Assembly (NCBI GenBank): GCA_963757335.1
Contig: CAVWRJ010000011.1
Coordinates: 71,700 to 135,699 of the forward strand
Reading direction: 5' to 3'
Origin: an uncultured Acidobacteriota bacterium
Lineage (GTDB): Bacteria > Acidobacteriota > Thermoanaerobaculia > Multivoradales > UBA5704
DNA: 64,000 nucleotides
Made by a program: the position numbers and the translations under genes. The notes under the pieces are model-generated. The model had not been told where the DNA came from and did no database searches. It was given only the letters and a program-made list of their open reading frames with translations. Below, one piece after another: positions 437-46,743 of this stretch (position 1 is its first letter; every line of letters starts with the position of its first letter).

Positions 437-440
437 GGCG

Positions 441-29240: not shown

Positions 29241-29248
29241 TCGATACC

Positions 29249-29941: not shown

Positions 29942-29960
29942 CGGCGGAGTCCCATGGCGG

Positions 29961-31801
29961 TCATTCTGCGCCGAGCGGTGCCAGGAGCGGCAGCTCCTCG
30001 TCAGTCGGCTGGAAAAGGACGGCGCCGACGGTGCCGGGCCCGGCGTGGGTCCCCACCACCGGCCCCATCTCGGTGACCAGCAGCTCGCGGATGTCGAAGG
30101 CCCCGGCGAGGAGCTCGCGGAGGCGGTCGGCCCAGACCGGCGCCTTGGCGTGGGCGACCCCGGCGAGCACCGGCCGGTCCGCGGCGACCCGCTCCCGGAA
30201 GAGCTCCAGGAGGCGCGGGTGCGCCGCCCGGCCGCCCCGCACCCGGTCGACCGCTACCACCTCCCCTCCCACGACGCCGAGGATCGGTTTGATCCCCAGG
30301 AGGTTGCCGAACACCGCCCGCGCCCGGCCGATGCGGCCGCCGCGCGCCAGGTACTCCAGGGTGTCGACGACGAAGAGGACGTGCAGCCGAGGGCGGATGG
30401 TGGCGAGCCGGTCGGCGATCTCCGCCGCCGGCACCCCGCGCCGGGCGAGCCGGGCGGCGAAGAGGGCGAGAAGGCCGAGACCGAGGCTCACCGAACCGCT
30501 GTCGACCACCCGCGGCGAGGTATGCCCCACCTCGTGCCCCGCGCACCCCTCGTGCTCAGAGCCGGCACCCAGGCCGTCCGCGGCGGCCCGGGCATGGACG
30601 ACGGTCTGCGACAGCTTCTCCGAGAGGTGAACCGAGATCAGCTCGCCGCGGCCGGCGAGCCCCTGGTAGGCGGCGGCGAGCTCCTCTGGCGACGGGGGCC
30701 GGGTGCTCGGCGGCAGGGGGCCGTGCTCCAGGCGTTGGTAGAACTCGCGGGGGGTGAGGTCGATCCCGTCCCGGAGGTCCTCCTCGCCGAACAGGACGTG
30801 GATGGGCACCACCTCGATGCCGTGGGCGCGGGCCAGCTCGGCCGGCAGGTCGGCGGCCGAATCGGTGACGACGCCGACCGGCGTCCGCGGCTCCTCGAAG
30901 ACGACGAGCCCACGGTCGTGGAAAGCCAGGAGGTCGCGGAGGATCTCGCCGTCGGTGCCGGGGAGGGTGTCCAGGAGGTGGCCGACGCTCGGCCCGTCGG
31001 CGAGGACTCCCAGAAGTCGCCGCTCGGAGAGGGAGAACGGGGTGGCGAAGTAGCCGGGACCGGTCGACAGGTGGACCCGGACCGCCGGCCCCGGGGCGCC
31101 GTGGACGACGTCCTCGATGGCGAGGATGAGGAGCGCGGAGAGGTCGCTCTCGATCTCTCTCCCCATCTCCTTAGTCCCCTGGCTCACCTCGGGGCCGGCG
31201 GGGAGGAGATGGAACGGACCGGCCTCCTTCCTGGCGAGGCGGAGGAAGGCCTTCTCGCCGCGCACCCCCGCCGCCGTCGTCACCCGCGCGGCGACCACCT
31301 CGCCCGCCGCGAGGGCGACCTCCCCCCCTCCAGCACGACGGACCCGGAGACCTGGGCCCGGTTCAAGGCCCGCAGCAGCTCGAGCAGGGGGAAGAGGGCC
31401 AGGTCGCCGACCAGGGTCTCCAGGCGGGCGTCGGGCTCGACCCCGATCTCGCTCCCCAGGAGGACCAGCCGCACCCGCCGCACGAGATCGTCCCCGGCGA
31501 GCCCGCGGGCGACGAGGAAGAGGACCTCCGCTGGCAGCTCGCGAGCCTCCTCCTCGCTCCGGCCGAGGAGGAGGAGGGTGCGCGCCGACCCGGGGCCGGC
31601 GGCGAAACCCGCCCAGTCGGTGATCCCGGGGAGGTCGGCGGCCGCCACCACGACGGCGGGGCCGAGGCTGGCGGCGAAGCGCCGCCCCTCGGCGGCGTCG
31701 ACCGCCGGCACCACCTCGTAGCCGAAGCCGGACAGGCCGCGGGCGAGCTCCCGCCGGCGGGAGCTGTCCGGGTCGACCACCAGCAGGGCGGGACGGGCCA
31801 T
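29961..31801 (-). CDS. receiver (REC)-DUF4388-DegV fusion protein, interrupted by an apparent frameshift at a G7 run (about 31326-31332)
   Basis: 31801-31280 frame: MARPALLVVDPD...AADLPG (CheY-like receiver) then LVGDLALFPLLELLRALNRAQVSGSVVLEGG (DUF4388 start). It continues in another frame as EVALAAGEVVAARVTTAAGVRGEKAFLRLARKEAGPFHLLP (DUF4388 core). C-terminal DegV (VGVVTDSAADLP...GIEVVPIHV...). Adding one G to the C7/G7 homopolymer restores a single frame. Confidence 0.55.
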
Positions 31802-31979
31802 CGTGCCTCTCTCGAAGAAGCTCGCGCGTTGTACTTCGGGCAGCCAAGCATAGACCGAACCCCGCCGAAAGTCCCGAGGCGGGCGCTTCTGCTATTCTTG
31901 AGGCGGTCAGACTCAGCATAGACATCAACACGACGCCCGAGGCCGGTGGTCCGGAAGGGTGGCGCAAAGGAGGCGAACC

Positions 31980-32600
31980 TTGAGAGGAAAGGTGACGGCG
32001 ACCCTGACGGTGGCGGCATGCCTGCTGCTGCTCGGCAACCCCGTGCACGCACAGGACCGCGCGGACGACGATCGGTCCGACGCCCAGGAACACCGGGGGA
32101 AGGAGAGCTTCGCCCTGGCGGTCGGCGCCGGCTTGGCCGACGTCAACAGTGTGGCCGAGCCCTACCTGACGGCGGCTCTCCGCATCCGCATCGGCGGGCG
32201 GCGCCAGGAAGAGGAGGCCCCCGACTGGCGCGGCCGGGCGCCGGAGGGCGGGATGCGCGGCTATCTGGAGCCCGAGATCGGCTACTGGAAGGCGAGCGGC
32301 AACAACGGCAACGGCAGCGACCTCCTCCTGGGGGTCAATCTGGTGGGGGTCGTGCCCGTGGGCGCGGTCGACACCTACATCGGCGCCGGCCTCGGCGCCC
32401 ACCGCTTGGACGCCGACCTGCTGAGCGCCCCGACCAGCACCAGCAAGCAGACCAAGCTCGGGGTCAACGCCCAGTTCGGGCTCGACGTCTACGTCACCCA
32501 CTCGGTGAGCCTCTTTGGGACCGGCCGCTTCGACATCGTGCAGGATGCCAGAAAAAGCGTCCAGGCCAAGGCCTATCTGGGCCTCCGCGCCCGCTTCTGA
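31980..32600 (+). CDS. outer-membrane beta-barrel protein (OmpW/OmpA-like small barrel)
   Basis: AAGGAGG RBS 6 nt before TTG at 31980; signal peptide LRGKVTATLTVAACLLLLGNPVHAQ; alternating amphipathic beta-strands; C-terminal ...LGLRARF aromatic terminus. Confidence 0.6.
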   Translation: MRGKVTATLTVAACLLLLGNPVHAQDRADDDRSDAQEHRGKESFALAVGAGLADVNSVAEPYLTAALRIRIGGRRQEEEAPDWRGRAPEGGMRGYLEPEIGYWKASGNNGNGSDLLLGVNLVGVVPVGAVDTYIGAGLGAHRLDADLLSAPTSTSKQTKLGVNAQFGLDVYVTHSVSLFGTGRFDIVQDARKSVQAKAYLGLRARF

Positions 32601-32655
32601 TCCGCCCGCGGCTCACCCGGTGGCGCGCCGTCCCAGCGCGCCACCGGGAGGGTCG

Positions 32656-33399
32656 TCACCCCAACTGAAATTCCGCGATCACCGGCAGATGGTCGCTCGC
32701 CACCCGTGAGACCTGCAGGCGGCAGGAGCGGACGCTCGCGAGCGCCAGCGGCCCGCGGTAGTAGATCCGGTCGAGGCCGCCCTGGGGCGAGAACGAGGGA
32801 TAGGTGCGCAGAGCCCCCGCCGAGCCCTTCTTGCGGTCGGTCGCGCAGCGGAAGCCGAAGACCTCGGTGAAGATGGGGCGCAGCAGCGAGCGCCAGTCGT
32901 TGAAATCGCCCCCTACGAGGAGCGGGACGTCCGGCCCGACGCGGCGGAACTCCGCCGAGTTGACGAGCAGGCCGATCTGCTTCTCGCGCTCACGCGCCGA
33001 GAGCCCGAGGTGGAGGTTGAAGGCCTCCAGGGTGCCGCCCTCGGGGAGTGCCAGGGTGGTGTGCTGGCAGCCACGCCGGATGAGACTGCCGATCGCCGAG
33101 GAGTCGATGGTGAGATCGATGTTGGTCTCGCGGAGGATGGGGAACCGCGAGAGGGTGGCGTTGCCGTAGCGCCCCTTCCTCAGGGTGACGTTGTGGCCCA
33201 CCGCGAAGTGGGGGTAGCCGAGGGTGCGGGCGAGCTCCCTGGCGAGGTCGAGCTCGCGCGAGCGCGGAGCCCCCTCGTCCACCTCCTGGAGGAGGACCAC
33301 GTCAGCGCCGTAGTGGCCGAGGATGGTGGCGATCCGCTCCGGGCGGAAGCGGCGATCGACGCCGATCGCCCGGTGAATGTTGTAGGTGATGATTCGCAT
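32656..33399 (-). CDS. endonuclease/exonuclease/phosphatase (EEP) family protein
   Basis: MRIITYNIH...VVLLQEV...GGDFNDW...SDHLPVIAEF are classic EEP motifs. Confidence 0.8.
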   Translation of the reverse strand: MRIITYNIHRAIGVDRRFRPERIATILGHYGADVVLLQEVDEGAPRSRELDLARELARTLGYPHFAVGHNVTLRKGRYGNATLSRFPILRETNIDLTIDSSAIGSLIRRGCQHTTLALPEGGTLEAFNLHLGLSAREREKQIGLLVNSAEFRRVGPDVPLLVGGDFNDWRSLLRPIFTEVFGFRCATDRKKGSAGALRTYPSFSPQGGLDRIYYRGPLALASVRSCRLQVSRVASDHLPVIAEFQLG

Positions 33400-33606
33400 G
33401 CGCACGCTTCGAGCCGATCTCCGTTCCTTCCTGGGGTGAGCTTTAGGAGGACTATAGTAGATGGAGCATGTCTCCCGGCATCGAAAGCCTCCCCATCTAC
33501 ACCCTCGGTCACTCGACCCGCACAACCCCTGGACCGTCGCCGCCCCGGGTTGCCACCGGGCCGGCGTTTCTCTAGCATCGGGGGCTCAACTGTATCGGAG
33601 GTGAGA

Positions 33607-34113
33607 ATGAGCGTCGCCCAGATGTTGCTCCCCGAGTTCGACAACGAGATGAAGACCACCCGCCGCGTCCTGGAGCGGGTTCCCGAGGATAAGTTGGACT
33701 GGCAGCCCCATACCAAGTCGATGACCCTGGGCCGCCTGGCGAGCCACCTGGCCGAGCTGGCGGGCTGGGGGGAGTACACCCTGGCCAACGACTCCCTGAA
33801 CCTCTCTCCTCCGGGCGGCCCCCCCTTTACGCCCTTCGATTCGCGGTCGCGCCAGGAGATTCTGGAAACCTTCGACGCCAACGTCCAGAAGACCCGCGCC
33901 GCCCTCGAACAGGCGACCGACGACGCCGCCTTCGCCAAGCCCTGGACGCTCGAGTTCGGGGAGCGCGTGATCTTCACCATGCCGCGCGCCGCCGTGCTCC
34001 GCGGCACGATGTTCAGCCACATCGTCCACCACCGCGGGCAGCTTTCCGTCTATCTGAGACTCAACGACGTGCCGGTGCCGTCGATCTACGGCCCCTCCGC
34101 CGACGAGCAGTAG
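33607..34113 (+). CDS. DinB/YfiT-like (DinB_2) four-helix-bundle protein
   Basis: KLDWQPHTKSMTLGRLASHLAE...MFSHIVHHRGQLSVYLRLNDVPVPSIYGPS is the typical DinB_2 signature (His triad). Confidence 0.8.
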   Translation: MSVAQMLLPEFDNEMKTTRRVLERVPEDKLDWQPHTKSMTLGRLASHLAELAGWGEYTLANDSLNLSPPGGPPFTPFDSRSRQEILETFDANVQKTRAALEQATDDAAFAKPWTLEFGERVIFTMPRAAVLRGTMFSHIVHHRGQLSVYLRLNDVPVPSIYGPSADEQ

Positions 34114-34141
34114 GAGAAAAGAGCCCGGGCCGGCCTCGCCG

Positions 34142-35284
34142 CTACGCCTTCAGCACCTCGCGGCGCACGGCGAGGGCCGCCACCCGCTCGACGTCGACCG
34201 CCACCCCCATCCCGGGGCGGTCGAAGGGGACGGTCACGTACCCCTCGGCATCCATCGTCCACTCGGGATCGACGATGTCCCGCTCCCAGTAGCGCCGGCT
34301 GGGCGAGAGGTCGCCGGGGAGGGTGAAGTTGGGGAGTGAGGCGAGCGCCACGTTGTGCGCCCGGCCGACCCCGCTCTCGAGCATCCCCCCGCACCAGACC
34401 GGCAGGCCGTGCCGGGCGCAGACGTCGTGGACGGCCTTCGCCTGGCGGAAGCCGCCCACCCGGCCGGCCTTGATGTTGACGATCCGGCCGCTGCCGAGGG
34501 CGATGGCGTCCTCGGCGCGGTCGGCGCTGGTGATCGACTCGTCGAGGCAGATCGGGGTCTTGAGCGCCTTCTGGAGGGTGGCATGGCGGAGGAGGTCGTC
34601 CCAGGCGAGCGGCTGCTCGATCATCAGGAAGCCGAGCTCGTCCAACGCCTGGAGCTGCGGCAGGTCGGCCAGGGTGTAGGCGTTGTTGGCGTCGGCCATG
34701 AGCGGCGCGGCCGCCCCCAGCGCCTCGCGCACCGGCCGCACGTAGTCGAGATCGGCCCCCGGCTCGATCTTCATCTTGAGCTTGCGATAGCCCTCGGCAA
34801 GGCAGCGCCGCGCCTTCTCGACCAGCGCCTCCGGGCTCGCCTGGATGCCGATCGAGATCCCCACCGGGATGCGCCGCTGGGTGCCGCCCAAAAGAGACGC
34901 CAGGGAGACGCCGCGGAGACGCGCCGCAAGCTCCCAGGCGCCCATCTCGAGCGCCGCCTTGGCCATGTTGTGACCGCGGAAGTTGACGTCCAGATGGGGC
35001 TGGATCTCTTCCGGGCCGTCGAAGCGGCGGCCGAGGACCCGCGGGGCGACCCACTCGCGGAGAGCGAGCCAGGCGGTGTCGGTCGTCTCCGAGCTGTAGT
35101 TGGGGCCCTCGCCGGCCACGCATTCGCCCCACCCCTCCGCCCCCTCGGCCGAGAAGAGATGAAGGAGCAGAATGCGCCGGGTCGTCACCACCCCCGAGGA
35201 GATGCGGAACGGCTCGACCAGGGGGAGGGAGATCTCGGTAAGCTCGATGCGGTCGATTCTCAGCATGGTCTCCTCAAGACTCAT
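34142..35284 (-). CDS. menC: enolase-superfamily o-succinylbenzoate synthase / N-succinylamino-acid racemase (OSBS/NSAR)
   Basis: KLKMKIEP (KxK), DANNAY, MIEQPL, CLDESI, NIKAGRVGG metal-ligand and catalytic Lys motifs of the MR/MLE/OSBS subgroup; alternative start MLRIDRI at 35266. Confidence 0.8.
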   Translation of the reverse strand: MSLEETMLRIDRIELTEISLPLVEPFRISSGVVTTRRILLLHLFSAEGAEGWGECVAGEGPNYSSETTDTAWLALREWVAPRVLGRRFDGPEEIQPHLDVNFRGHNMAKAALEMGAWELAARLRGVSLASLLGGTQRRIPVGISIGIQASPEALVEKARRCLAEGYRKLKMKIEPGADLDYVRPVREALGAAAPLMADANNAYTLADLPQLQALDELGFLMIEQPLAWDDLLRHATLQKALKTPICLDESITSADRAEDAIALGSGRIVNIKAGRVGGFRQAKAVHDVCARHGLPVWCGGMLESGVGRAHNVALASLPNFTLPGDLSPSRRYWERDIVDPEWTMDAEGYVTVPFDRPGMGVAVDVERVAALAVRREVLKA

Positions 35285-36118
35285 CCGGCGTCTTCGCCGC
35301 CATGACCCCGTAGAAACACCGGCCGGTCTCCCGGTCGCGGTAGAACGCCGTCACTTTGTAGCCGGCGCCCAGGTAGTGCTCGAAGGCCCGGCGGGTGAGG
35401 GCGCGCCAGGCGGCCGCTTCGTCGGGGTGCTCCGCCTTCACCTCTTGAATGCTCGCCGGCACCTCGATCCGTACCCGCTCTGCCTCGGGGAGGGGGTCGG
35501 CGACGCTCTGGAGCCCCACGACCCCCCTCCCCCCACGATCGGCGCCGTCGCGAAGCCCTCCCCACCCCCACCGAGCTCCCCGGCGAGCGCCCGGCGCACC
35601 CGTTCGCCACCGATCCGCCAGTCGACGATGAAGCGGTCGGTGCCGATCCCCTCCGCGAGCTCGCTCCCCATCTCTCCGGCGTACATGTCCTCCACGTACT
35701 CGGCGACCTTCGCCCCGAGGCGGTTGAGGTTCAAATGAGCGTTCCGCGCCTCCAGGGGGTCGTAGGTCCAGAGCACCGACTCGATCCCCAGGGGGAGCAG
35801 CAGGTCGCGCTGGAAGCGCTTGAGACGGGCGCCGATGCCGAGGTCCCGCGCGCCGGGCGCCACCGCCAGCATGTGCGACCAGTGGGCGAGACGGCCGCCG
35901 CGCACCCCGGTGAGGCCGAAAACGAAGCCGAGGAGCCGCCCTTCCGGATCGAAGGCCCCGGCCGCCACCCCCCCCACCTTCTGGCAGATCTTGAGGATGC
36001 TCCCCGGCACCGCCTCGGCGAAGCCCTGCCCCCAGGTGGCGCGCTGGAGCTCGACGCAGGCGGCGTAGTCCGCCGTCGAGCTGAGCGGGCGCAGCTCGAC
36101 GGCCGGCAGGGACCCCAC
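35274..36118 (-). CDS. GNAT-fold acyltransferase (candidate N-succinyltransferase partner of NSAR), interrupted by an apparent frameshift at a G6-A-G6 run (about 35522-35536)
   Basis: 36118-35540 frame: VGSLPAVELRPLSSTADYAACVELQRATWG...LAHWSHMLAVAPGARDLGIGARLKRFQRDLL (GNAT acyl-CoA motif region). The 3' part continues in a -1 frame (VRIEVPASIQEVKAEHPDEAAAWRALTRRAFEHYLGAGYKVTAFYRDRETGRCFYGV). GTG start overlaps the stop of the upstream gene (TAGGCGTG). Confidence 0.5.
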
Positions 36119-36120
36119 GC

Positions 36121-36714
36121 CTAGCGGCCTGCCTGGCCCTGGCTCCACGGCGGCACGACGCCGTTCGAGCGGGCGTAGGCGATCGACTGCCCGAGGTGCT
36201 CGTGCATATGGTTGGCGATGACGAACATCGCCTCCCGCACCGTCCCCTCGTGGCCGAAGATCTTGATCGTCCGGTCGAGGTCGGAGTCGGGCGTCGAGTC
36301 GACCACCCGGCGGATGTGGGCGAACGACTGCTGCAGGGCCTCGGCCACTTTGGCCTTGTCGCCCCCCTGCTTCTCCAGATTGGGCACGTCGATGTCCGCC
36401 GGCGGCTTGACGCCCCAGAGCGTCGGCAGGAAGAAGTTGGCGCTCGCGAGATGCATGTAGACCTCCCCCACCGAGCGCACGCCCGGGGCCGGGCGCCAGG
36501 AGTACTTGTCGGCGGGCACCGCCGCGGCCAGGCTCAGGACCTTCTTCTGCACGTCGTCCAGCTGGTGGAGGAACTCGGCGCGGAAGCCGGTCTGCACCTG
36601 CGGCTTCTGGACCGGCGTGACGCTCTTCTGTTGCGGCGTCTGCGCGATAGCCGCGGCGGCGCAGAGGAGAGCGGCGGCGACGGTGGCGAGGGCGGTCTGC
36701 GACTTTATCCTCAT
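36121..36714 (-). CDS. secreted DinB_2-family protein
   Basis: Signal peptide MRIKSQTALATVAAALLCAAAAIAQ; MHLASANFF...NHMHEHLGQSIAYAR His-rich DinB_2 motifs. Confidence 0.75.
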   Translation of the reverse strand: MRIKSQTALATVAAALLCAAAAIAQTPQQKSVTPVQKPQVQTGFRAEFLHQLDDVQKKVLSLAAAVPADKYSWRPAPGVRSVGEVYMHLASANFFLPTLWGVKPPADIDVPNLEKQGGDKAKVAEALQQSFAHIRRVVDSTPDSDLDRTIKIFGHEGTVREAMFVIANHMHEHLGQSIAYARSNGVVPPWSQGQAGR

Positions 36715-36904
36715 GACGGATTCCTCCAATGGGTAGCGATCGGCTGCGGATTCTAGCAGCCCTGGCGGTACTGGGTTCGTTTAAATCCGAGGACGGACGA
36801 CTGGCTGCGCGGAGCGCCCGAAGGAGACCGCCCGCAGGTTCAAACGGGCCCAGGACCGCCCGGCCGTCCTGAGCGCCGCCGCACACCTGTACTAGAATCA
36901 GGAG

Positions 36905-38194
36905 GTGCATCTGACCCTGGCCCTCCTGGCGAGCCTCGGCGCCGCTGGGCTGCTGATCGCCCTCGTCCTGACGCTCGGCCGCGCCGCCTTTCTCGTCCGC
37001 CAGCTCACCTTCCCGCTCTACGTCGCGGCGGCGGCGGCCGGCGTCTACGTCTTCACCCTCTTCCCAGCGGGGCGGAGCCCGGAGGCCGGGCGCGCCCTCG
37101 CCTGGATGCTCCTCTTCCTCGCCGCGGCGGTCGTCCTCCGCCTCCTCGGTCTGTTCGTCTTCGACGTCCACCTGCAGAGCCGCAAGGGGGTGCGCCTGCC
37201 GCCGCTCCTGCCGGCGGTGTCGATGCTCGTCGTCTACCTGCTGGCGGCCCTCATCACCCTGCGGGTGAGCTTCCCGCAGCTCGACATCGCGCCGCTCCTG
37301 GCGACCAGCGCGGTCACCTCGCTCGTTCTCGGCCTCGCCCTCCAGCCGATCCTCGGCAACTTCTTCGCCGGCATCGTCATCACCCTCGAAAAGCCGTTCC
37401 GCTTGAACGACTGGATCAAGGTCGGCGACCACGAGGGGCGGGTGGTGGCGATCAACTGGCGGACCACCCACCTGCGGACGCGCGACAACGACAACATCGT
37501 CATCCCCAACGGCAGGATCGCCGACGACCGGGTCCTCAACTACTACTATCCGCACCCCATGCACCTGGAGAAGGTGCGGGTGGGGATCTCCTACGACACG
37601 CCGCCCTACCGCGCCCGGCGGGCCCTCCTCGAATGTCCCCCGGGGATCGCCGGCGTCCTCGACAAGCCGACCCCCGAGGTCTACGTCGCGAGCTTCGACG
37701 ACAGCGCCGTCCTCTACGAACTGCGGGTCTGGATCGAGGACGTCGCCCAGTCCAACCGGATCGCGAGCGACCTCCGGGCGCGGATCTGGGAGGAGCTGAC
37801 CCGGGCGGGGATCGCCATCCCCTACCCCACCCGCACCGTGAAGCTCGCCCGCCGCGAGCGGCCGGTCCAGCAGGAGCTCCCGAGCGGCGCGCCGCGGCCG
37901 GCCCGGCTCTACGTCGCCGAGGGGGCCGAGCGCGGCCGTACGGTCGAGCTCGACGGCCAAGCGATAATCGTCGGCCGCTCCCGCTCCTCCCACCTCGCCC
38001 TCGCCGACGCCAATGCCAGCAAGGAGCACCTGCGCATCGAATGGACCCCGGAAGGCTACGTCCTGACCGACCTCGGCAGCAGCTTCGGGACCCGGGTCAA
38101 CGGCCAGGCGGCGAGCCGGGTGGTTCTCCACCCCCTCGACCGGATCGCCATCGGCGATACCCTGCTCATCTTCGAAAGTGAAACCCATGCCTGA
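36905..38194 (+). CDS. mechanosensitive ion channel (MscS family) with C-terminal FHA domain
   Basis: Three N-terminal TM helices, MscS core (SLVLGLALQPILGNFFAGIVITLEKPFRLNDWIKVGDHEGRVVAINWRTTHLRT), C-terminal FHA (GRTVELDGQAIIVGRSRSSHLAL...NGTRVNGQ). Confidence 0.85.
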   Translation: MHLTLALLASLGAAGLLIALVLTLGRAAFLVRQLTFPLYVAAAAAGVYVFTLFPAGRSPEAGRALAWMLLFLAAAVVLRLLGLFVFDVHLQSRKGVRLPPLLPAVSMLVVYLLAALITLRVSFPQLDIAPLLATSAVTSLVLGLALQPILGNFFAGIVITLEKPFRLNDWIKVGDHEGRVVAINWRTTHLRTRDNDNIVIPNGRIADDRVLNYYYPHPMHLEKVRVGISYDTPPYRARRALLECPPGIAGVLDKPTPEVYVASFDDSAVLYELRVWIEDVAQSNRIASDLRARIWEELTRAGIAIPYPTRTVKLARRERPVQQELPSGAPRPARLYVAEGAERGRTVELDGQAIIVGRSRSSHLALADANASKEHLRIEWTPEGYVLTDLGSSFGTRVNGQAASRVVLHPLDRIAIGDTLLIFESETHA

Positions 38195-39158
38195 CGAGAC
38201 CTTCCCTGCCACCCTCGGTCCCTACCGCCTCGGCGGCCTCGCCGGCCGCGAGGGTCGCCGCCACTCCGCGACCGCCTATCAGGCGACCGCCCCGGACGGC
38301 CGGGCGGTGGTGGTCGAGGTGATGTCGCGCGCGCTCGCCGCCGACCCGGCGGCGGTCGAGCGCTTCAACCGCGAGGTCGAGAAGCTCGCCGCCATCGAGC
38401 ACCCCAACCTCCTCCGGGTCTTTTCGAGCAGCGAGGACGCCGGCCGGGTCTACCTGGTGCGCGAGGCCTGGGACTGCCCGGCGCTCGGCGACCTCCTCCG
38501 CGAGCGGCGCCCCACGGTCCCGGAGTCGCTCGCGGCGTTCAAGGGGATCTTGAAAGGCTTGGGCCAGCTCCATCAACGGGGGATCGTGCACCGCGACTTG
38601 AACCCCACGACCGTCTTCGTCTCCCACGACCTCTCCCAGGTCAAGCTCGCCGGCTACGGCCTCGGCAAGGCCGACGCCTTGAGTGGGACGACGGGGACCC
38701 TCTCGACCGGCGAGGTGAGCCTCGCCAACATCTACTATCTGGCGCCGGAGCAGGCCGAGGGGAAGCCCTCCGACGCCCGCTCGGACCTCTACTCGGCCGG
38801 GGTCCTCTTCCATCAGCTCTTGACCGGCCGCGCCCCGAGCGCCAAGTTCGGCCTGCCGAGCCAGCTCAACCCGGAGCTGCCGCCCGAGGTCGACAGCCTC
38901 GTCCTGAAGTGTCTGGCCCGCCGGCCGGAGGACCGCTACTCGAACGTCCCCCACCTCCTGGGCGACCTCCTCCAGCTGGAGGAGACCCTCCGCCTGCGCC
39001 TCCTCTCCCAGATCCAGGGGATCTCCCGCTCGACCTCCCGCCTGCTCGGCCAGGAGGAGGGGGGAACGACGAAAAAGAACCCCGCCCTCCTCTGGGTGGG
39101 GATCGGGGTGGTCGTCGTCCTCGTGGCGGCGGTGGCGTTCTTCCTGCTTCACCACTGA
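38178..39158 (+). CDS. membrane-anchored Hanks-type pseudokinase
   Basis: Kinase fold retained (ERFNREVEKLAAIEHPNL, YLAPEQ, DLYSAGV, RPEDRY) but beta3 Lys absent (VVVEVM), catalytic loop HRDLNPTT (Lys to Asn, Asn to Thr), DFG replaced by GYG; C-terminal TM LLWVGIGVVVVLVAAVAFFLL; start overlaps the mscS-FHA gene by 17 nt. Confidence 0.8.
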   Translation: MKPMPDETFPATLGPYRLGGLAGREGRRHSATAYQATAPDGRAVVVEVMSRALAADPAAVERFNREVEKLAAIEHPNLLRVFSSSEDAGRVYLVREAWDCPALGDLLRERRPTVPESLAAFKGILKGLGQLHQRGIVHRDLNPTTVFVSHDLSQVKLAGYGLGKADALSGTTGTLSTGEVSLANIYYLAPEQAEGKPSDARSDLYSAGVLFHQLLTGRAPSAKFGLPSQLNPELPPEVDSLVLKCLARRPEDRYSNVPHLLGDLLQLEETLRLRLLSQIQGISRSTSRLLGQEEGGTTKKNPALLWVGIGVVVVLVAAVAFFLLHH

Positions 39159-39271
39159 GGGCCTGCAAGACGCATATCCATGGGTTGCTATTCCTCTATC
39201 TTCGCGGTAAGGTCAGATTTCGCTCGGCCCGCCTCGGCGGGCTACCCACTGACTGAGAAAAGGAGTTCACC

Positions 39272-39538
39272 ATGGAGCGAGCCAATATCGCCTCAAACCG
39301 CACCTCGAAGTTCCGCCTTGCCATCGCCTTGACCGGAGTCCTCGGGGCCGGCAGTCTCGCGTTCGCCGCTACCGCCCCAGCCGCGACCCCGGCCGCCAGG
39401 TGCGTCCCCAACCCGAACCCCATCTGCTACCAGATCTACAAGCCGGTGATCTGCAGCAACGGCAAGGTGTACACCAACCAGTGCTACGCCGACGCGGATT
39501 GCGCGAAGAACTGCGTGCCCTACACTCCCCCGGCGTAG
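39272..39538 (+). CDS. small secreted Cys-rich protein with Kazal-like protease-inhibitor motif
   Basis: Signal peptide, then C..NP.C.....PVICSNGKVYTNQCYADADCAKNC matching the Kazal core (C-x-[ST]-[DN]-G-x-[TV]-Y-x-N-x-C ... C). Confidence 0.55.
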   Translation: MERANIASNRTSKFRLAIALTGVLGAGSLAFAATAPAATPAARCVPNPNPICYQIYKPVICSNGKVYTNQCYADADCAKNCVPYTPPA

Positions 39539-39613
39539 CGTCGTAGCTCGATTGTCCGGGACCCCGGGAGCCGGGGTCCCGGCCTTCCCCCACCTTCGGC
39601 TAGACTACCCCGC

Positions 39614-40435
39614 ATGGCAGACCTCAAAGGCAAGACCCTGTTCATCACCGGCGGCAGCCGCGGCATCGGCCTCGCGATCGCGCTCCGCGCCGCTGCCGAC
39701 GGCGCCAACGTCGCCATCGCCGCCAAGACCGCCGAGCCCAATCCGAAGCTCCCGGGGACGATCCACACCGCCGCCCGGGAGGTCGAGGCGGCGGGCGGCA
39801 GGGCCCTGCCACTCCAGATCGACATCCGCGACGAGGAGCAGGTGCGGGCCGGGATCGAGAAGACGGTCGAGACCTTCGGCGGGCTCGACATCCTGGTCAA
39901 CAACGCGAGCGCCATCTTCCTCGCCGGGACGCTCGAAACCCCCATGAAGCGCTTCGACCTCATGTGGTCGGTCAACGGGCGCGGCACCTTCGCCTGCTCG
40001 CAGGCCGCGATCCCCCACTTGAAGCGCTCGGCCAACCCCCACATCCTCAGCCTCTCGCCGCCGCTCAACCTGAACCCCAAGTGGTTCGCCAACCACTGCG
40101 CCTACACCATGGCGAAGTACGGCATGAGCCTCGCCGTCCTCGGAATGGCGGCGGAGTGGAAGGACGACGGCATCGCCGTCAACGCCCTCTGGCCGCGCAC
40201 CGCCATCGCCACCGCCGCCCTCGCCATGCTGGGGGGGATGGTCAAGCCCGAGAACTGCCGGAAGCCCGAGATCGTCGCCGACGCCGCGCACGTCGTCCTC
40301 ACCCGGGACAGCCGCTGCTGCACGGGGAACTTCTACATCGACGACGAGGTGCTGGCGTCGGCGGGGGTCAAAGATCTCGATCGCTACGCCGTCCAGCCGG
40401 GAACCCCGCTCTTCAACGACTTCTTCGTCGACTAG
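39614..40435 (+). CDS. SDR family NAD(P)-dependent oxidoreductase
   Basis: TGGSRGIG, NNAS, YTMAK catalytic motif. Confidence 0.85.
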   Translation: MADLKGKTLFITGGSRGIGLAIALRAAADGANVAIAAKTAEPNPKLPGTIHTAAREVEAAGGRALPLQIDIRDEEQVRAGIEKTVETFGGLDILVNNASAIFLAGTLETPMKRFDLMWSVNGRGTFACSQAAIPHLKRSANPHILSLSPPLNLNPKWFANHCAYTMAKYGMSLAVLGMAAEWKDDGIAVNALWPRTAIATAALAMLGGMVKPENCRKPEIVADAAHVVLTRDSRCCTGNFYIDDEVLASAGVKDLDRYAVQPGTPLFNDFFVD

Positions 40436-40615
40436 CGCTGACCGGCGCTTCTGGGGGGGGAGGAGCTTCCCCGGGAAGCCATAAAGATGTCGTAAAGACT
40501 CGCATAGCTCTATATCAATACGCACCCGATCGGAGCTACAGTAGGTTCCAGCCAATCCGCCGTAGTACTTAAGGATGCCCGCGGGAGATCCCGTGGGATT
40601 TTGGAGGGAGAACCT

Positions 40616-41146
40616 ATGTGGACCCGGGTGAGGGACCGCCAGCGGGGTTTCACCTTGATCGAGCTGCTGATCGTCGTCGCCATCATCGGGATCATCGCCG
40701 CCCTGCTCATTCCGAACTTCCTGGACGCGCTCCAGAAGGCGAAGCAGAAGCGGACGGTGGCCGACATGCGAAACGCCGGTACCGCCATGTTCTCCTGGCT
40801 GACCGACCAGGTCGGCGCCGCCGCCGCGGGCGCCGCCGCCACCACGGTCGACCTGACGAGCTACGGCACGGTGACGGACGGCAGCAACCTGCTCTCGGTC
40901 CTCGTCCCGCAGTATCTCCAGGCGGTGCCCGAGGTGGACGGCTGGAAGACCAACTACGACTACTACATGAAGACCGCCACCCCGCTCGATCCGCAGGTCA
41001 TGGCCATCCACAGCTACGGCCGCGACAAGAAAAAGCAGCTGACGACCGCGATCAACGTCACCTCCTTCGATCCCACCGACTACGACCAGGACATCCTCTG
41101 GGCCGACGGCTTCTTCGTCCGCTGGCCGCAGAAGGTCACCCCCTGA
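40616..41146 (+). CDS. type II secretion / type IV pilus pseudopilin (prepilin-type N-terminal cleavage/methylation domain)
   Basis: GGAGGGAG RBS; MWTRVRDRQRGFTLIELLIVVAIIGIIAALLIPNF is a class III signal peptide; ORF-track frame opens at 40601. Confidence 0.8.
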   Translation: MWTRVRDRQRGFTLIELLIVVAIIGIIAALLIPNFLDALQKAKQKRTVADMRNAGTAMFSWLTDQVGAAAAGAAATTVDLTSYGTVTDGSNLLSVLVPQYLQAVPEVDGWKTNYDYYMKTATPLDPQVMAIHSYGRDKKKQLTTAINVTSFDPTDYDQDILWADGFFVRWPQKVTP

Positions 41147-41147
41147 T

Positions 41148-41390
41148 TTAAGGCCTGAACGCCGCGACAGACAGGGCGCCCCGCGACGCCTCGACAGGCA
41201 CCTCCACAGACGCTGGCCTCGGCCGCGCTCCGTCCAGCTTCACCAGCTGGGTGGGCGGCCGCAGGCCCGCGGGCGAGACATGCCCCGGGACCACGAAGTG
41301 CCAGAGCCCGGCCACGACCAACGCCAGGATCAGAGTCCCGCAGCCGAACGGGATTCCACAGCAGCAACCACGTACCTGGACGTTCGACAT
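41148..41390 (-). CDS. hypothetical small membrane protein (Cys cluster CCCGIPFGCG)
   Basis: ORF track only; TM-like LILALVVAGLWHFVV. Confidence 0.25.
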   Translation of the reverse strand: MSNVQVRGCCCGIPFGCGTLILALVVAGLWHFVVPGHVSPAGLRPPTQLVKLDGARPRPASVEVPVEASRGALSVAAFRP

Positions 41391-41470
41391 GGCGGGAGAG
41401 CTCCTTCCTCAAAGAGGCCGTACCGCTACGGCCGCCGAGATCCGATGCAAGAGCAGCTCCACGCCCCCCC

Positions 41471-41550
41471 CGATGTCGACGATGTCGGACTCTGTCGGAC
41501 GATGTCGGGAGGTGTCGAACGGTGTCGGTTTATGTCGATTATGTCGGTCA
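41471..41550 (+). promoter_or_regulatory. eight direct repeats of NNTGTCG(G/A)NN at 9-10 bp (helical) spacing, candidate transcription-factor/enhancer binding array
   Basis: cgATGTCGac gATGTCGgac tcTGTCGgac gaTGTCGgga ggTGTCGaac ggTGTCGgtt taTGTCGatt aTGTCGgtca, followed by inverted repeat CTGCCGG-N13-CCGGCAG. Confidence 0.6.
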
Positions 41551-41598
41551 CTGCCGGTTTTTCACCGACGCCGGCAGGCGCCCCCCGCGGAGCCAGCC

Positions 41599-41614
41599 GG
41601 GCACGGCCCTTGCT
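41599..41614 (+). promoter_or_regulatory. candidate sigma-54 (-24/-12) promoter GGGCACG-N4-TTGCT
   Basis: Matches TGGCACG-N4-TTGCW with correct GG/GC spacing; about 85 bp upstream of ATG 41700 and 50-130 bp downstream of the TGTCG repeat array. Confidence 0.45.
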
Positions 41615-41699
41615 TTTTCAGCTTTTCGATTCGTTGTTCCATCTCTGTCGTAAGTGTTACTGAGAGACCATTCTCAGAATCGAAAGGAAGGGGTGCACC

Positions 41700-42929
41700 A
41701 TGAAGATTCGTTTCGCTGTGTTGGTATTGACCGTCGCGGCGAGCTCGCTCTGGCTCGCCGGGAGCGGTGGTTCGCAGCCGGTGCTCGCCGCGACCGCCGG
41801 GAGGGTCGCCGCGCCGGCCGCCTGCCAGTTTCCGCTCGGCTGGGTGGGTACGCCGGCGGAGACCGCCTGGCGGCTCTTCGTCGCGACGAACTGCCCGGCT
41901 GGCGGCACTCAGCTCGTCTGGGAGACCTGGATCGAGCAGGACGCCCTCTATCCCGCGAGCGGATCGGCAGCGCAGAAGGGCGCCAAGGCCAAGCGCCTCC
42001 ACGGGAGCCCGCTGTTCAAGGCTTTGATGGCCCGGAAGAACGGCATGACGGCCGAGCTCTCCCCGGCCACGGAGTGCAACAAGATGGGGAGCCCGCCGTC
42101 AAACGTCGTCCCCAACGCCACGGTCTGCGAGGAGGTGCGGCTCAACCCCTCGGCCCGGACGTTCGTCCAGACCAAGGGCTACCAGGTGCGCTCCGGCCAG
42201 ATCAAGGCCGCCCAGTCCGGCACCAACATCCAGTTCCCGACCGCCGGGATCGAGGTCAAGGTGGACTGGATTCCCGCCACCGACTTCGCGACGCCTTTCA
42301 CCTGCGCCAACCCGCCCCAGGGCGTGCACGTCGAGACGATCGACGGCGCCTGCTACGCCATGGCCGGCATGCACCTGATCTCGAAGATCGCGCCGAACTG
42401 GATCTGGGCGACCTTCGAGCCCCAGAGCATGGAAACCAACCCCAATCGCTGCATCACGTTCGGAGCGTGCAACGACCCCTGGGGCTCGGTCCCGCCGACG
42501 AGCAGCGGCGGCGCCGGCGGCTTCACTCAGCTGACCCCCGCTCTCCAGGCCCTCATGAAGAGCGCCAACCTCGCGCCGGAATTCCTCAACTACCGCCTGG
42601 ACGGCGTCCAGACCCAGTTCGGCACCGCCGCCAACCCGACCCTCCTCGGCAACTCGATCATCGAGGGCGAGAACGTCGGCATGACGACCGGCACGGCGTC
42701 CTGCATCACCTGCCACTCGGTCTCCACCGTCAAGACCGACGGCACGGACGGGATCACCATTCTGGGGAGCTTGCCGACGCCGCCGGTCGGGCCGGAGTAC
42801 GTCGTCCCCCAGGGCTGGATCGCGCGGGACTTCGTCTGGTCGCTGGCGCTCGCCTGCCCCGGTGGGATCCAGAACTGCTCGTCGTCCGTAGCGGCGGCGA
42901 AACCGGCGAAGAAAACGAAGACGAAGTAA
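41700..42929 (+). CDS. secreted protein with a single CxxCH heme-binding motif (putative c-type cytochrome domain), Lys-rich C-terminus
   Basis: GGAAGGGG RBS; signal peptide MKIRFAVLVLTVAASSLWLAGSGG; ASCITCHSV (CxxCH); many conserved Cys. Confidence 0.6.
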   Translation: MKIRFAVLVLTVAASSLWLAGSGGSQPVLAATAGRVAAPAACQFPLGWVGTPAETAWRLFVATNCPAGGTQLVWETWIEQDALYPASGSAAQKGAKAKRLHGSPLFKALMARKNGMTAELSPATECNKMGSPPSNVVPNATVCEEVRLNPSARTFVQTKGYQVRSGQIKAAQSGTNIQFPTAGIEVKVDWIPATDFATPFTCANPPQGVHVETIDGACYAMAGMHLISKIAPNWIWATFEPQSMETNPNRCITFGACNDPWGSVPPTSSGGAGGFTQLTPALQALMKSANLAPEFLNYRLDGVQTQFGTAANPTLLGNSIIEGENVGMTTGTASCITCHSVSTVKTDGTDGITILGSLPTPPVGPEYVVPQGWIARDFVWSLALACPGGIQNCSSSVAAAKPAKKTKTK

Positions 42930-42939
42930 CGATGGACGT

Positions 42940-43420
42940 CCGGGCGGGATCGGCGGTGCCGGTCCCGCTGCCACGGCGCGAGACACGAACGGCTCCAGCG
43001 AGACACTAGCGACCCTCCACGAGACACGAAGCGTCGACGGCGAGACACGATGTGTTGGCGGTGGGACGCGAAGTTCCGACGGTGGGACACGAAGCGTCGG
43101 CGGTGGGACACGAAGCTTCGGCGGTGGGACACGCGCGTCCTGCCGCGAGACACAGCCGGCCGGCAGCGAGACACAGCCGGCCGGCAGCGAGACACAGCCG
43201 GCCGGCAGCGAGACACAGCCGGCCGGCACGCCGTGGCCCGCGGCAGGCGCGTGGTGACTCGCAGCAGGCGCGTAGTGACTCGCGGCAGGCACGTAGTGAC
43301 TCGCGGCAGGCGCGTCGTGACTCGCGGCAGGCGCGTCGTGGCCCGCGGCAGGCGCGTGGTGGCCCGCGGCAGGCATCTGGTGTCTCGGTCCAACCGAGGG
43401 GTCTTACCTGCCGCGCTCGC
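42940..43420. repeat. about 23 tandem 21-bp repeats in three sub-families: GCGAGACACAGCCGGCCGGCA x4 (perfect), GGTGGGACACGAAGCGTCGGC-like x4, CGCGGCAGGCGCGTNGTGACT-like x7
   Basis: Direct reading; occupies the convergent intergenic region between the CxxCH-protein gene and etfA; stop-free in several frames, producing artefactual heptad-repeat ORFs. Confidence 0.8.
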
Positions 43421-43507
43421 GACAACCCTTCCTACCGTCATCCTGAGAGGAGCCCTAGCGACCGAAGGACCTGGGCGGGGGAGAAGGTGCGCCCAGGCCG
43501 CGCTGCA

Positions 43508-44494
43508 CTATCCCTTGGCTTCCTTGATCGCCGCGGTGAGCGCCGGCAGGATCTCGTGCAGGTCGCCGACGATGCCGTAGTCGGCGACGGTGAAGATCGG
43601 GGCGCCGGGGTCCTTGTTGATGGCGACGATGGTCGTCGAGCCCTTCATCCCCACCAGGTGCTGGATGGCGCCGGAGATCCCCGCCGCCAAGTAGAGCTTG
43701 GGGGCCACGGTCTGACCGGAGGAGCCGATCTGGCGGTCGCGCGGCAGCCAGCCGTTGTCGATCACCGGCCGGCTGGCGCCGATCTCGGCCCCGAGGGCCT
43801 TGGCGAGCTCCTCGATCACCCCCATCTTGTCGGCCCCGCCCACCCCGCGGCCCACGGCGACGATGATCTCCGCCTTGGTGAGGTCGATCTTCTCCCCCCC
43901 CACCTGCTCGACACCGAGGACCTCGCGATCGGGCTTGACCGCCGAGAGGTCGACCGCGAGCGGTTGAATCGGCGCTGGAGCCGCCCCTAAAGCCGCGCCC
44001 CCCTGGAAGGCGCCGGACTGGACCGAGACGAGAACCGTGCCAGGACCCTTGACCCGCACCTTCGCCTGCATCTTGCCGCCGAGGATGGGCCGACTCCAGA
44101 GCAGATCATCCGCCCCTCCGGAGAAGCCGGTCACCTCGGGGAGGAGCCCCGCCCCCACCTCCTGCGCCAGCCGGGGGACGTAGTCGACCGACTGGTAGCT
44201 GTGGGGGAAGACGACGAAATCGGGCGCCGCCGCCCGGATCGCCGGGGCGAGGGCCGCCACGTAGGCGCCAGGGGTGTAGGTGCCGAGCGCCGGGGCGTCC
44301 GCCAGGTGGACGGCGGCGAGATCGCGCTTCGCCACCTCCGCCGCGGCGCCCTCCAGACCCGCTCCGAGGAGCACCGCCTCGGCCTTCCCGCCGCCGAGCT
44401 CCGCCGCCAGCTTCTGAGCGGCGGCGATCGCCTCCCAGGACATCCGCGCGATCTGGCCCTCGCGCTGCTGCAAGACCACCCAGATCTTCGCCAT
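43508..44494 (-). CDS. etfA: electron transfer flavoprotein subunit alpha
   Basis: Full-length match to EtfA including the FAD-binding C-terminal domain ([37 protein letters not shown]). Confidence 0.9.
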
Positions 44495-45289
44495 CTAGAA
44501 AATCCTCGCTTCGGTGCGCAGTTTCTGGACGAGGGCCGCCGCCTGCTGCTTCGGGTCGCCCTCGAGCATCTGGGCCCCGGTGCCGCTGTCGGGCAGGGCC
44601 ACGGAGACGATCTCCAGCCGCGAGCCGGCCGCCCCCAGCTGACCGGGGTCGAGCCCGAGATCGCCGGGGGACACCTCGGCGATCTCCTTTTTCTTCGCCG
44701 CCATGATCCCCTTGAGCGAGGCGTAGCGCGGATGGTTGATGCCAGCCTGGATTTCGAGCACCGCCGGGAGCTGGATACGGACGATCTCGTTCATCCCGCT
44801 CTCCATCTCCCGGGTCACCCTGGCGCTCTTGCCGTCCGCTTCGAGCTCGACCCCCATGACCAGCCAGACATGGGGCCAGCCCAGCTCGCCGGCTAAAACC
44901 GAGCCGGTCCCGGCGTAGCCGACATCGTCCGACTGCGAGCCGGTGAGGACGAGGTCGAAGCTCTCCCGCTTCATGGCGGCGGCCAGGGCCCGGCCGGTCG
45001 CCAGGGCGTCGCCACCGAGGAAAGCCGGATCTTTGAGGTGGATCGCCCGCGCCGCGCCGACGGCGAGGCCCTTGCGGATCGCCTCCCGGACCCGCTCCGG
45101 ACCGAGGCTCACGAGGACCACCTCGCCGCCGGTCTTCTCGGCCAGGGCGAGCCCCTCCTCCAGGGCATACTCGTCGCTCTCGTTGATGACGAAGGGCAGG
45201 TCCTCCTCCTCCAGCCACCGCCCGTCGCGGCTGACGCGGAGCCGCGCCTCGGTGTCGGGGACCTGTTTGATGCAGACCGCGATCCTCAT
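44495..45289 (-). CDS. etfB: electron transfer flavoprotein subunit beta
   Basis: MRIAVCIKQVPDTEARLRV... canonical EtfB N-terminus; adjacent to etfA. Confidence 0.9.
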   Translation of the reverse strand: MRIAVCIKQVPDTEARLRVSRDGRWLEEEDLPFVINESDEYALEEGLALAEKTGGEVVLVSLGPERVREAIRKGLAVGAARAIHLKDPAFLGGDALATGRALAAAMKRESFDLVLTGSQSDDVGYAGTGSVLAGELGWPHVWLVMGVELEADGKSARVTREMESGMNEIVRIQLPAVLEIQAGINHPRYASLKGIMAAKKKEIAEVSPGDLGLDPGQLGAAGSRLEIVSVALPDSGTGAQMLEGDPKQQAAALVQKLRTEARIF

Positions 45290-45339
45290 GGGAACCTCTC
45301 CTCGGAACGAAAGGGAACGGCGGCAAGCCCGCCTCTAGC

Positions 45340-45846
45340 TCAGGATATCAGCGCCTGGCCGTCGAGGAGACGGCGGAGCAGCGGCGGGTCGGGGTTGAAG
45401 GCCCACAAGCGGTCGTCGAAGAGCAGGGTGGGGATCACCCGCCGGCCGCCGCTCCGTTCGAGGACCGTGGCCTCGGCCCGCGGATCGCGGTCGATATCGA
45501 CCTCGTCGTAGGAGGTGTCGGCCTCGTCGAGGACCCGCTTGGCGCGCCGGCAGTCGGGGCACCAGGCGGCGCTGTAGACCACCCGGCGCGAGGTGGGGAA
45601 TCCCGCGCCGCCGGCGAGCCGCGCCGCCTCCTCGGGGGAGAGGCGCAGGCCCACCACCCGGATCTTGCCGCCGGGCTCGCGGAGCAGCACCGCCGGCAGG
45701 TCGTGACGGGGGGAGATCCCGAGCTTGATCAGCTGATGGGCCGCCGCCGGATCGGCGGCGACGTCGACCGGCTCGCCACAGGGGACGAGGGGCGCCTCCT
45801 GCTCCGTCGAGTTGAAATAGACCTTGCAATCGAGATTCTGGTACAT
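45340..45846 (-). CDS. glutaredoxin-like (thioredoxin-fold, CPDC active site) protein with N-terminal extension
   Basis: VVYSAAWCPDCRRAKRVLDEADTSYDEVDIDRD...VIPTLLFDD glutaredoxin/NrdH-like pattern; start MYQNLD. Confidence 0.6.
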   Translation of the reverse strand: MYQNLDCKVYFNSTEQEAPLVPCGEPVDVAADPAAAHQLIKLGISPRHDLPAVLLREPGGKIRVVGLRLSPEEAARLAGGAGFPTSRRVVYSAAWCPDCRRAKRVLDEADTSYDEVDIDRDPRAEATVLERSGGRRVIPTLLFDDRLWAFNPDPPLLRRLLDGQALIS

Positions 45847-45854
45847 GGCCCTCG

Positions 45855-46553: not shown

Positions 46554-46659
46554 CGAGGTTGGGCCGAACGAAGGGGATCGGGGTAGCGCATCGGAGAGGC
46601 CCGCATACCGCAACTGGTGCGGCAGCCGAGCGCGCGCGAGACTATCACGGCGGGTGGGT

Positions 46660-46694: not shown

Positions 46695-46743
46695 TGCCCG
46701 TCGCCCCGAGCGTGAAAGGTCCGGTCTGCTCAGGCGGCACGTC

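Follow-up and report, generated by a model that had tools for sequence, protein, structure and literature searches.

What does a kinase-like protein that has lost its catalytic residues do beside a mechanosensitive channel that ends in a forkhead-associated (FHA) domain, and why are the two genes kept together? The question is raised by a gene pair in a 64,000-nt stretch of contig CAVWRJ010000011.1 (GCA_963757335.1, positions 71,700-135,699, forward), here called the window, whose own positions serve as coordinates below. Both genes lie on the plus strand: 36905..38194 encodes a 429-amino-acid MscS-FHA channel, as seen by the open reading frame (ORF) list, Pfam, the PDB sequence matches and an AlphaFold2 (AF2) model, and 38187..39158 encodes a tail-anchored pseudokinase of 323 amino acids, recognised in the ORF list and by the Pfam Pkinase profile. 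An earlier note on this DNA had placed the two overlapping genes at 36905-39158 and described the channel as MscS with a C-terminal FHA domain; the ORF list, with ORFs at 36905..38194 and 38178..39158, and Pfam confirm this. It also suggested that the pseudokinase may bind the channel FHA domain, an idea that comparison between genomes now backs through about 59 adjacent loci, the adjacency of a kinase domain in 15/15 against 0/64 loci, a fusion ORF and a common clade.

The common view of bacterial MscS-like channels is that of safety valves opened by membrane tension. The reading favoured here, put tentatively and with slightly less than even confidence, is that the kinase-like protein is a degenerate former cognate kinase, which would now act as a phosphorylation-dependent adaptor or docking partner of the channel FHA ring.

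Loss of the catalytic residues

Regarding the overall fold, the pseudokinase matches the Pfam Pkinase profile over residues 30-255 (E 5e-27, 95.3 bits), and among PDB sequences it is PknB kinase domains that it matches best (E 5e-33). The AF2 model, made with a 38-sequence alignment, is a confident kinase fold with a mean predicted local distance difference test (pLDDT) score of 89.7, and its top Foldseek matches are the kinase domains of the mycobacterial PknI, PknA, PknB and PknE (E down to 2e-17), with a TM-score of about 0.8, normalised to the target, against PknI, PknA and PknB.

The kinase-like domain (38265..38942, plus strand) has degenerate catalytic motifs, as seen by the alignment to Mycobacterium tuberculosis PknB and the motif table of the family. 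The beta3 lysine, K40, is replaced by Glu in VVVEVM (nt 38307-38324); in the catalytic loop, HRDLNPTT (nt 38589-38612), K140 is replaced by Asn and N143 by Thr, with the HRD aspartate kept; and D156 of the DFG motif is replaced by Gly in AGYGLG (nt 38649-38666). The alphaC Glu, the APE motif (YYLAPEQ), the subdomain IX Asp (RSDLYSAG) and the subdomain XI Arg (RPEDRY) are kept. The residue losses and retained landmarks listed in the earlier note are in this way borne out residue by residue, and the Gly-rich loop GxGxxG proves to be degenerate as well (GLAGREGRRHS). A sequencing error at the key codons, which that note had named as a possible refutation, is excluded because 14 non-identical sequences, including the independent metagenome proteins P0001-P0013, share the same Glu, Thr and Gly substitutions. 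By every sequence criterion the window protein is a pseudokinase, and so is almost the whole family.

Among 158 non-identical family members, 25 residue combinations are found at the positions of PknB K40/D138/N143/D156, namely KSND (64 members), EDTG (14, the window clade), QETG (11), KGND (11), KDND (8) and others, and many members carry Thr in place of the catalytic-loop Lys (HRSLTPRN). The catalytic positions drift across the family, and this drift shows that selection maintains no particular active site. One eight-member subclade (L046-L056, P0029) keeps all four catalytic residues, together with a degenerate Gly-rich loop and a catalytic-loop Lys replaced by Thr.

Conservation of the gene pair

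Database relatives of the kinase-like protein, 300-340 amino acids long, number more than 1,200, and the named ones carry the label Thermoanaerobaculia. In a scan of one genome per species, 61 family loci were collected from Acidobacteriota metagenome-assembled genomes. Wherever a family locus includes upstream DNA (about 59 Thermoanaerobaculia/Acidobacteriota loci), the kinase-like gene is immediately preceded by an MscS-FHA gene of the same strand, the only exceptions being two contigs cut at that point, and the same channel-kinase-like order is seen in three further metagenome loci. Identity to the window proteins across the family is 60-70% for the channel and 42-56% for the kinase-like partner. 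Of 60 scored junctions, 41 are overlaps of 1-38 nt and 19 are gaps of 6-40 nt, so that co-transcription of both genes is very likely but translational coupling, proposed in the earlier note for the window pair, is not universal.

As a control for chance adjacency, a metagenome scan seeded on MscS-core motifs gave 80 loci, 16 with MscS-FHA and 64 with MscS lacking the FHA domain. An adjacent kinase domain is present in all 15 evaluable MscS-FHA loci, the sixteenth contig ending 138 nt past the gene, while none of the 64 loci without FHA has a kinase domain within 4 kb (Fisher p = 2e-16).

An exhaustive search of representative sequences also shows that more distant MscS-FHA fusions exist, at 34-42% identity, and that, among proteins without FHA, the channel core is most closely related to bCNG-type MscS proteins, which are about 500 amino acids long and have a cNMP_binding domain. 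A Pkinase gene stands immediately upstream or downstream, on the same strand, in seven of the eight distant MscS-FHA loci examined. These seven (L084, L087, L088 and L090-L093, one of them labelled Myxococcota) have a canonical kinase: all possess the Lys, H[RG]D-x-K-x-x-N and DFG, as well as a transmembrane (TM) segment, followed in the six complete ones by 210-280 extracytoplasmic residues with TPR matches, the gene in L088 being cut by the contig end. The single evaluable exception to the kinase association among distant loci is a 507-amino-acid MscS-FHA protein, P0132 (L085 730..2253, L086 687..2210), with no kinase gene in the available flanks.

Descent from an active partner kinase

The window pseudokinase aligns with the active partner kinase of L088 at 224 bits, with 40% identity over 313 residues that include the juxtamembrane helix, compared to 126 bits with PknB and 108 bits with the other kinase of the window. 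A neighbour-joining tree with 100 bootstraps recovers the tail-anchored family as monophyletic in every replicate (100/100), a single clade of all MscS-FHA partner kinases in 70/100, and a grouping of the family with the kinases of L088, L104 and L108 in 79/100. With this support, of 70-79 replicates in 100, the tail-anchored family appears nested within the MscS-FHA partner kinases.

The adjacent metagenome kinases form a series of canonical proteins, ectodomain-bearing proteins with altered motifs, and short, tail-anchored, degenerate proteins (L096, L106, L109). Those of L104 (1102..3036) and L108 (5004..6923) look like intermediate stages of degeneration: both keep the TPR ectodomain and have HRDLNPRN, the same Lys-to-Asn change as in the window protein, and in L104 the DFG motif has also become QFG. 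Moreover, a single 763-amino-acid ORF in L103 (58..2349) joins a kinase-like domain, with HGN for HRD and DFA for DFG, to an MscS core and an FHA domain, as assigned by Pfam. A fusion of this kind is classical evidence that the parts work together. According to the tree, its kinase domain degenerated independently of the Thermoanaerobaculia family, and L103 and L104 together suggest two or more degenerations in addition to that of this family.

On these comparisons the pseudokinase is a descendant of the channel's kinase partner that has lost the ectodomain and the catalytic constraint. In the Thermoanaerobaculia partner, the TPR sensor domain is lost and the catalytic residues are lost to varying degrees, and the fold, the anchor, the juxtamembrane helix and the loop threonines are kept.

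Activation-loop threonines

The activation loop contains the motif TGTLSTGEV (38691..38717, plus strand), a candidate phospho-docking site for the FHA domain by its family conservation and its predicted disorder. Its three threonines, T172, T174 and T177, have Leu, Thr and Val, respectively, at the +3 position, and the loop motif of the family reads T-[AG]-T-[LIV]-x-T-G-E-[IVL]. Thr occupies the three positions in 148, 156 and 158 of the 158 family members, and the residue at +3 to the first and third is always Leu, Ile, Val, Met or Phe. Within the AF2 kinase domain, only residues 170-178 have low confidence (pLDDT <50), and this loop corresponds to the part of PknB that carries the threonines at positions 171/173. 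The GT threonine that active kinases have in the P+1 loop is replaced by Ala, Asn or Gly in the pseudokinase family. Judged by this pattern of conservation, selection acts on the activation-loop threonines and not on catalysis.

The FHA domain of the channel

The FHA domain (37901..38179, plus strand) is predicted as a beta-sandwich of residues 333-425, modelled by AF2 with a pLDDT of about 86-93; it matches Pfam FHA (PF00498) at residues 354-417 (E 1.5e-13, 51.4 bits against a cutoff of 20.7) and an NCBIfam FhaB/FipA-like model. In FHA domains, the Gly-Arg pair and the Ser-x-x-His residues contact the phosphate, and the Asn of the S/T-x-N-G motif contacts the peptide backbone. The corresponding positions in the window protein are G357-R358 in VGRS (nt 37970-37981), S372 to H375 in ASKEH (nt 38015-38029) and the segment GSSFGTRVNG (nt 38075-38104). 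Of 56 family members, all keep G357, R358, H375 and N399, the Asn of VNG, and 52 keep S372. The same is seen in 27 distant MscS-FHA proteins, where Gly, Arg, Ser and the VNG Asn are present in 27/27 and His in 24/27. The phosphate-binding residues look intact, and one backbone-contacting residue looks atypical. A fully phospho-independent FHA domain of the YscD/EssC type is not adopted as the best reading because Arg, Ser and His are conserved.

Proposed mode of action and points against it

In the proposed mechanism, the channel and the pseudokinase would form a membrane complex. Each FHA domain would be suspended by its flexible linker under the vestibule, which is presumed to be heptameric, and would bind the pseudokinase; the most likely contact is with phosphorylated threonines of the activation loop (T-x-T-L-x-T-G-E-[IV]), modified in trans by a different Hanks kinase. 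The cytoplasmic cage would in this way be tethered or clamped to its partner in the membrane, which might alter the gating threshold, inactivation or clustering of the channel, so that the pseudokinase would be a phosphorylation-dependent adaptor placing an osmolyte-release valve under Ser/Thr signalling. Published cases make each docking step plausible by analogy: an FHA domain docks on the phosphorylated activation loop of PknB (GarA), the PknF-Rv1747 operon combines a kinase and an FHA-containing transporter (PMC8339232), and the pseudokinase MviN, phosphorylated by PknB, recruits FhaA (PMC12599244).

No active kinase is encoded in the operon, as the earlier note had said, and a candidate trans-acting kinase for the pseudokinase, e.g., for the loop threonines, is the product of 12938..15697 (plus strand). 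This Hanks kinase of 919 amino acids contains a TM segment, and its C-terminal region includes TPR; the Lys, the alphaC Glu, HRD, Asn and DFG are intact, with the catalytic-loop Lys replaced by Thr (HRDVTPGN), and it is the only other kinase in the 64-kb window, 23 kb from the pair.

Considering the distant loci as well, the MscS-FHA channel with its cognate Hanks kinase or pseudokinase could be an unrecognised multi-lineage module, where the gating or the localisation of the channel depends on its FHA ring binding to phosphothreonine in the kinase activation loop, a wider proposal that we hold to be possible but still doubtful.

Several points weigh against phosphorylation-dependent docking. 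The canonical S/T-x-N-G Asn, equivalent to Rad53 N107, is absent from the window FHA domain, which has F394 instead; the position is Phe, His, Lys, Tyr or Ser in the channel family and His, Phe, Thr, Ser, Gly or Ala in the distant relatives, an atypical state common to the whole MscS-FHA group, with active-kinase and pseudokinase partners alike, and its loss could weaken or alter peptide recognition. The conserved loop threonines might be structural, and the minority subclade L046-L056 and P0029, by its kept K, HxD, N and DFG, might still be active. As seen by the neighbour genes of the family loci, no kinase or phosphatase is conserved near the module. In addition, YukC-YukB, the only directly tested membrane pseudokinase-FHA pair, binds without phosphorylation (PMC9600267). 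Finally, the support is comparative throughout, and the effect on gating is purely what we infer, drawing on bCNG relatives whose C-terminal regulatory domain accompanies a failure to protect Escherichia coli from osmotic shock (PMC13591265).

Alternative explanations

The chief rival to this docking reading, which we regard as unlikely, is a constitutive complex in which the pseudokinase is a structural subunit and binds the FHA ring by a surface that needs no phosphate, as in YukC/EssB-YukB/EssC. It stays alive because of the atypical S/T-x-N-G Asn, absent throughout the MscS-FHA group, and it would agree with the gene overlap, which favours stoichiometric co-synthesis, and with the sequence of the window clade, by which autophosphorylation is implausible. 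The Yop-YscD_cpl Pfam model also scores slightly above FHA on the channel domain, and the FHA-like domain of that name in type III secretion proteins is regarded as phospho-independent. The precedent of YukC-YukB speaks for such a complex; however, the FHA domain of EssC/YukB has lost its phosphate-binding residues (PMC9600267), while here Gly-Arg is invariant and Ser..His nearly so, and an invariant Thr triplet with hydrophobic +3 residues in a disordered loop is hard to explain without phosphorylation.

It is rather improbable that the pseudokinase is instead a recruiting adaptor or decoy, which heterodimerises with or allosterically controls an active Hanks kinase, the FHA domain reading another phosphosite. 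Allosteric kinase partnering is common among pseudokinases (10.1101/2025.01.12.632604, discussion), the conserved juxtamembrane helix could mediate dimerisation, and the descent from an active kinase-channel pair, where the channel was perhaps a substrate, would fit. However, this reading leaves the invariance of the activation-loop threonines unexplained, no conserved Thr is evident in the vestibule-FHA linker, and no second kinase is conserved in the neighbourhood of the family loci.

Very improbable is an atypical enzyme that modifies the channel by non-canonical phosphate transfer or another nucleotide-dependent reaction. The HRD Asp and the alphaC Glu do persist in the window protein, K, D, N and DFG are retained by part of the family, and non-canonical ATP binding is reported in reviews for some kinases without the VAIK Lys (10.1101/2025.01.12.632604); the 25 patterns at the catalytic positions nevertheless speak against any conserved active site. 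Mere synteny of functionally unlinked neighbours, inherited within one bacterial class, is strongly disfavoured and close to negligible, for although most family loci come from one class and other neighbours are syntenic too (the DinB_2 gene in 43 loci, an SDR gene in 30), the association occurs outside the class with the kinase upstream or downstream and other flanking genes, is absent from the 64 related MscS loci without FHA, and has given the gene fusion of L103.

Architecture of the two proteins

The window channel is MscS-type by its profiles, structure matches and gate residues, and its heptameric assembly is presumed. Its closest solved structures are MscS channels (phmmer against the PDB: 7dlu, E 4e-26; E. 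coli MscS 2vv5, E 3e-22), and the AF2 monomer has a pLDDT of 85.7. The TM region (36905..37390, plus strand) has five predicted TM helices by hydropathy and AF2, the AF2 helices spanning residues 2-27, 35-52, 59-92, 101-122 and 129-162. The last is the pore-lining TM3, with the segment LGLALQP at nt 37328-37348, and directly precedes the beta-domain. In the alignment to E. coli MscS, both gate residues, L105 and L109, are Leu in the window channel; the Leu equivalent to L109 is found in 56/56 channel family members, and the G113 kink position is Pro. The cytoplasmic beta-domain and alpha/beta domain that form the vestibule (37349..37819, plus strand) match MS_channel_2nd (PF00924, residues 149-213, E 1.8e-22, 79.6 bits against a cutoff of 20.2) and MS_channel_3rd (PF21082, residues 223-305, E 1.3e-12, 48.4 bits against a cutoff of 21) in Pfam. 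They are followed by the flexible vestibule-FHA linker, residues 308-325 (37826..37879, plus strand), which has an AF2 pLDDT <50 and is weakly conserved across the family.

The pseudokinase probably starts at ATG 38187, within the last channel codons, so that the two genes overlap by the 8 nt ATGCCTGA (38187..38194, plus strand). This start is preferred because Met4 of the longer, GTG-started ORF is near-invariant in the family alignment and the homologues begin MPxxxP. The start at GTG 38178, giving 326 amino acids and the 17-nt overlap reported in the earlier note, is less likely given that invariance. A promoter and terminator scan of 36500..39700 revealed no promoter-like site, and its two terminator-like matches are a chance number and uninformative.

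After the kinase-like domain comes a long juxtamembrane helix (38946..39050, plus strand; AF2 helix 257-291) with the invariant motif LEE.LRLR, in which E268, E269 and R274 are invariant in the pseudokinase family; the active partner kinase of L088 has a comparable segment. The membrane anchor supposed earlier is a C-terminal TM helix without an extracytoplasmic domain (39084..39149, plus strand; hydropathy peak 2.87), at residues 303-324 of 326 by hydropathy and coinciding with AF2 helix 302-325. The kinase-like domain is cytoplasmic, tail-anchored and without a sensor domain, because this single TM helix has only two residues beyond it.

Neighbouring genes and other features of the window

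Divergent from the channel gene lies a DinB_2-family gene with a signal-peptide-like N-terminus (36121..36729, minus strand; Pfam DinB_2, E 7e-17), which has kept this place and orientation in 43 family loci and in L081-L083, and not in the L046-L056 subclade. Downstream of the pair, 39272..39538 (plus strand) encodes an 88-amino-acid protein rich in Cys, which begins with a signal-like segment, has no counterpart in Pfam and, among the family loci, is matched only in L002, and 40601..41146 (plus strand) encodes a 181-amino-acid protein with a prepilin-type N-terminal methylation motif. Neither of these small genes is conserved beside the module.

Further along, just past the ORF at 41700..42929, adjoining 21-nt tandem repeat arrays occupy 42978..43374, where periods of 42 and 63 are also scored and one array has four copies with 100% identity; long minus-strand ORFs translate these arrays into repetitive peptides. 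The G+C content is 53-66% in 1..24000 of the window and 66-74% in 24000..64000, a step at 24 kb that may mark a region of different composition or a join made in the assembly.

Relation to known systems

The pair resembles PknF-Rv1747 of M. tuberculosis, where a membrane transport protein with FHA domains is encoded beside its cognate TM-anchored Hanks kinase and the phosphorylated activation loop has been proposed as the site where the FHA docks (PMC8339232); the seven distant loci with a canonical kinase follow the same logic. However, Rv1747 is an ABC exporter with two N-terminal FHA domains, compared to the single C-terminal one of an MscS-type channel, and the kinase of the window lineage is catalytically degenerate and without an ectodomain. 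Regarding PknB-GarA, the activation-loop phosphothreonine of a Hanks kinase is the FHA docking site (PMC8339232), and the window threonines lie in the same segment. PknB, in contrast, writes its own phosphosites and then phosphorylates GarA, and the window protein would do neither by canonical chemistry, judging from its motifs.

Among pseudokinases, MviN (MurJ-like) with FhaA is similar in that a membrane-attached pseudokinase, unable to bind ATP, is phosphorylated in trans and recruits an FHA protein to regulate a membrane process (PMC12599244). The differences are that MviN is fused to a flippase, belongs to the actinobacterial ActPs3 family, in which the activation loop is often deleted, has its phosphosite outside that loop, and recruits a separate soluble protein; in the window pair it is the effector channel that carries the FHA domain, and the pseudokinase is a protein of its own, tail-anchored and closest in sequence to PknB-type kinases. 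In YukC/EssB-YukB/EssC, a single-pass membrane pseudokinase likewise binds the FHA domains of a membrane machine from the same operon (PMC9600267), but independently of phosphorylation, with an EssC FHA lacking the phosphothreonine-binding residues, an extracellular domain on EssB and a secretion ATPase as the machine.

The bCNG channels, the nearest core relatives outside the FHA group, carry a ligand-reading domain appended at the same place below the vestibule. That domain is cNMP_binding, in distinct proteins of about 500 amino acids, while the window channel has no cNMP_binding match and an FHA domain instead; the 64 bCNG-type loci have no adjacent kinase. When overexpressed, bCNG channels failed to protect E. 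coli against hypo-osmotic shock (PMC13591265).

The described families of bacterial pseudokinases that were considered are ActPs1-3 (including MviN), CP1, DYD, DLHK, GLW and EssB/YukC. The PDB sequence and fold matches listed for the window pseudokinase are canonical PknB, StkP, PknA, PknE and PknI domains, and neither MviN nor EssB is among these 60 sequence and 50 fold matches. Acidobacteria, channels and an MscS context go unmentioned in a 2025 atlas and in a review of bacterial pseudokinase families, full-text literature searches on MscS or mechanosensitive channels with FHA returned only unrelated papers and no description of MscS-FHA or of a kinase partnership, and a 2026 review of MscS-like channels, which calls their specialised roles poorly explored, does not mention FHA, kinase or phosphorylation (PMC13591265). 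The earlier description of pseudokinase-FHA pairing as an undescribed arrangement is too strong, because the principle is already published for MviN-FhaA (PMC12599244) and YukC/EssB-YukB/EssC (PMC9600267), and only its combination with an MscS channel appears new.

Implications for Thermoanaerobaculia and the kinase family

The always-adjacent pair suggests, by its conservation, that bacteria connect signalling by protein phosphorylation to mechanosensitive channels in a way so far unstudied. A channel family tied to a kinase or pseudokinase makes phospho-regulation of a mechanosensitive channel testable with two small proteins. It also offers a graded natural series with the same partner, from canonical receptor kinases, through ectodomain-bearing forms with altered motifs and tail-anchored forms with most catalytic residues, to fully degenerate ones, which is useful for asking which kinase features persist under scaffolding selection alone; those kept in the family are the activation-loop threonines, the alphaF/alphaG region and the juxtamembrane helix. 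If the multi-lineage docking module is true, it would be the first direct link of Ser/Thr phospho-signalling to MscS-type channels in bacteria, and in Thermoanaerobaculia nature would have run the experiment of removing catalysis and the sensor domain from the module while retaining docking.

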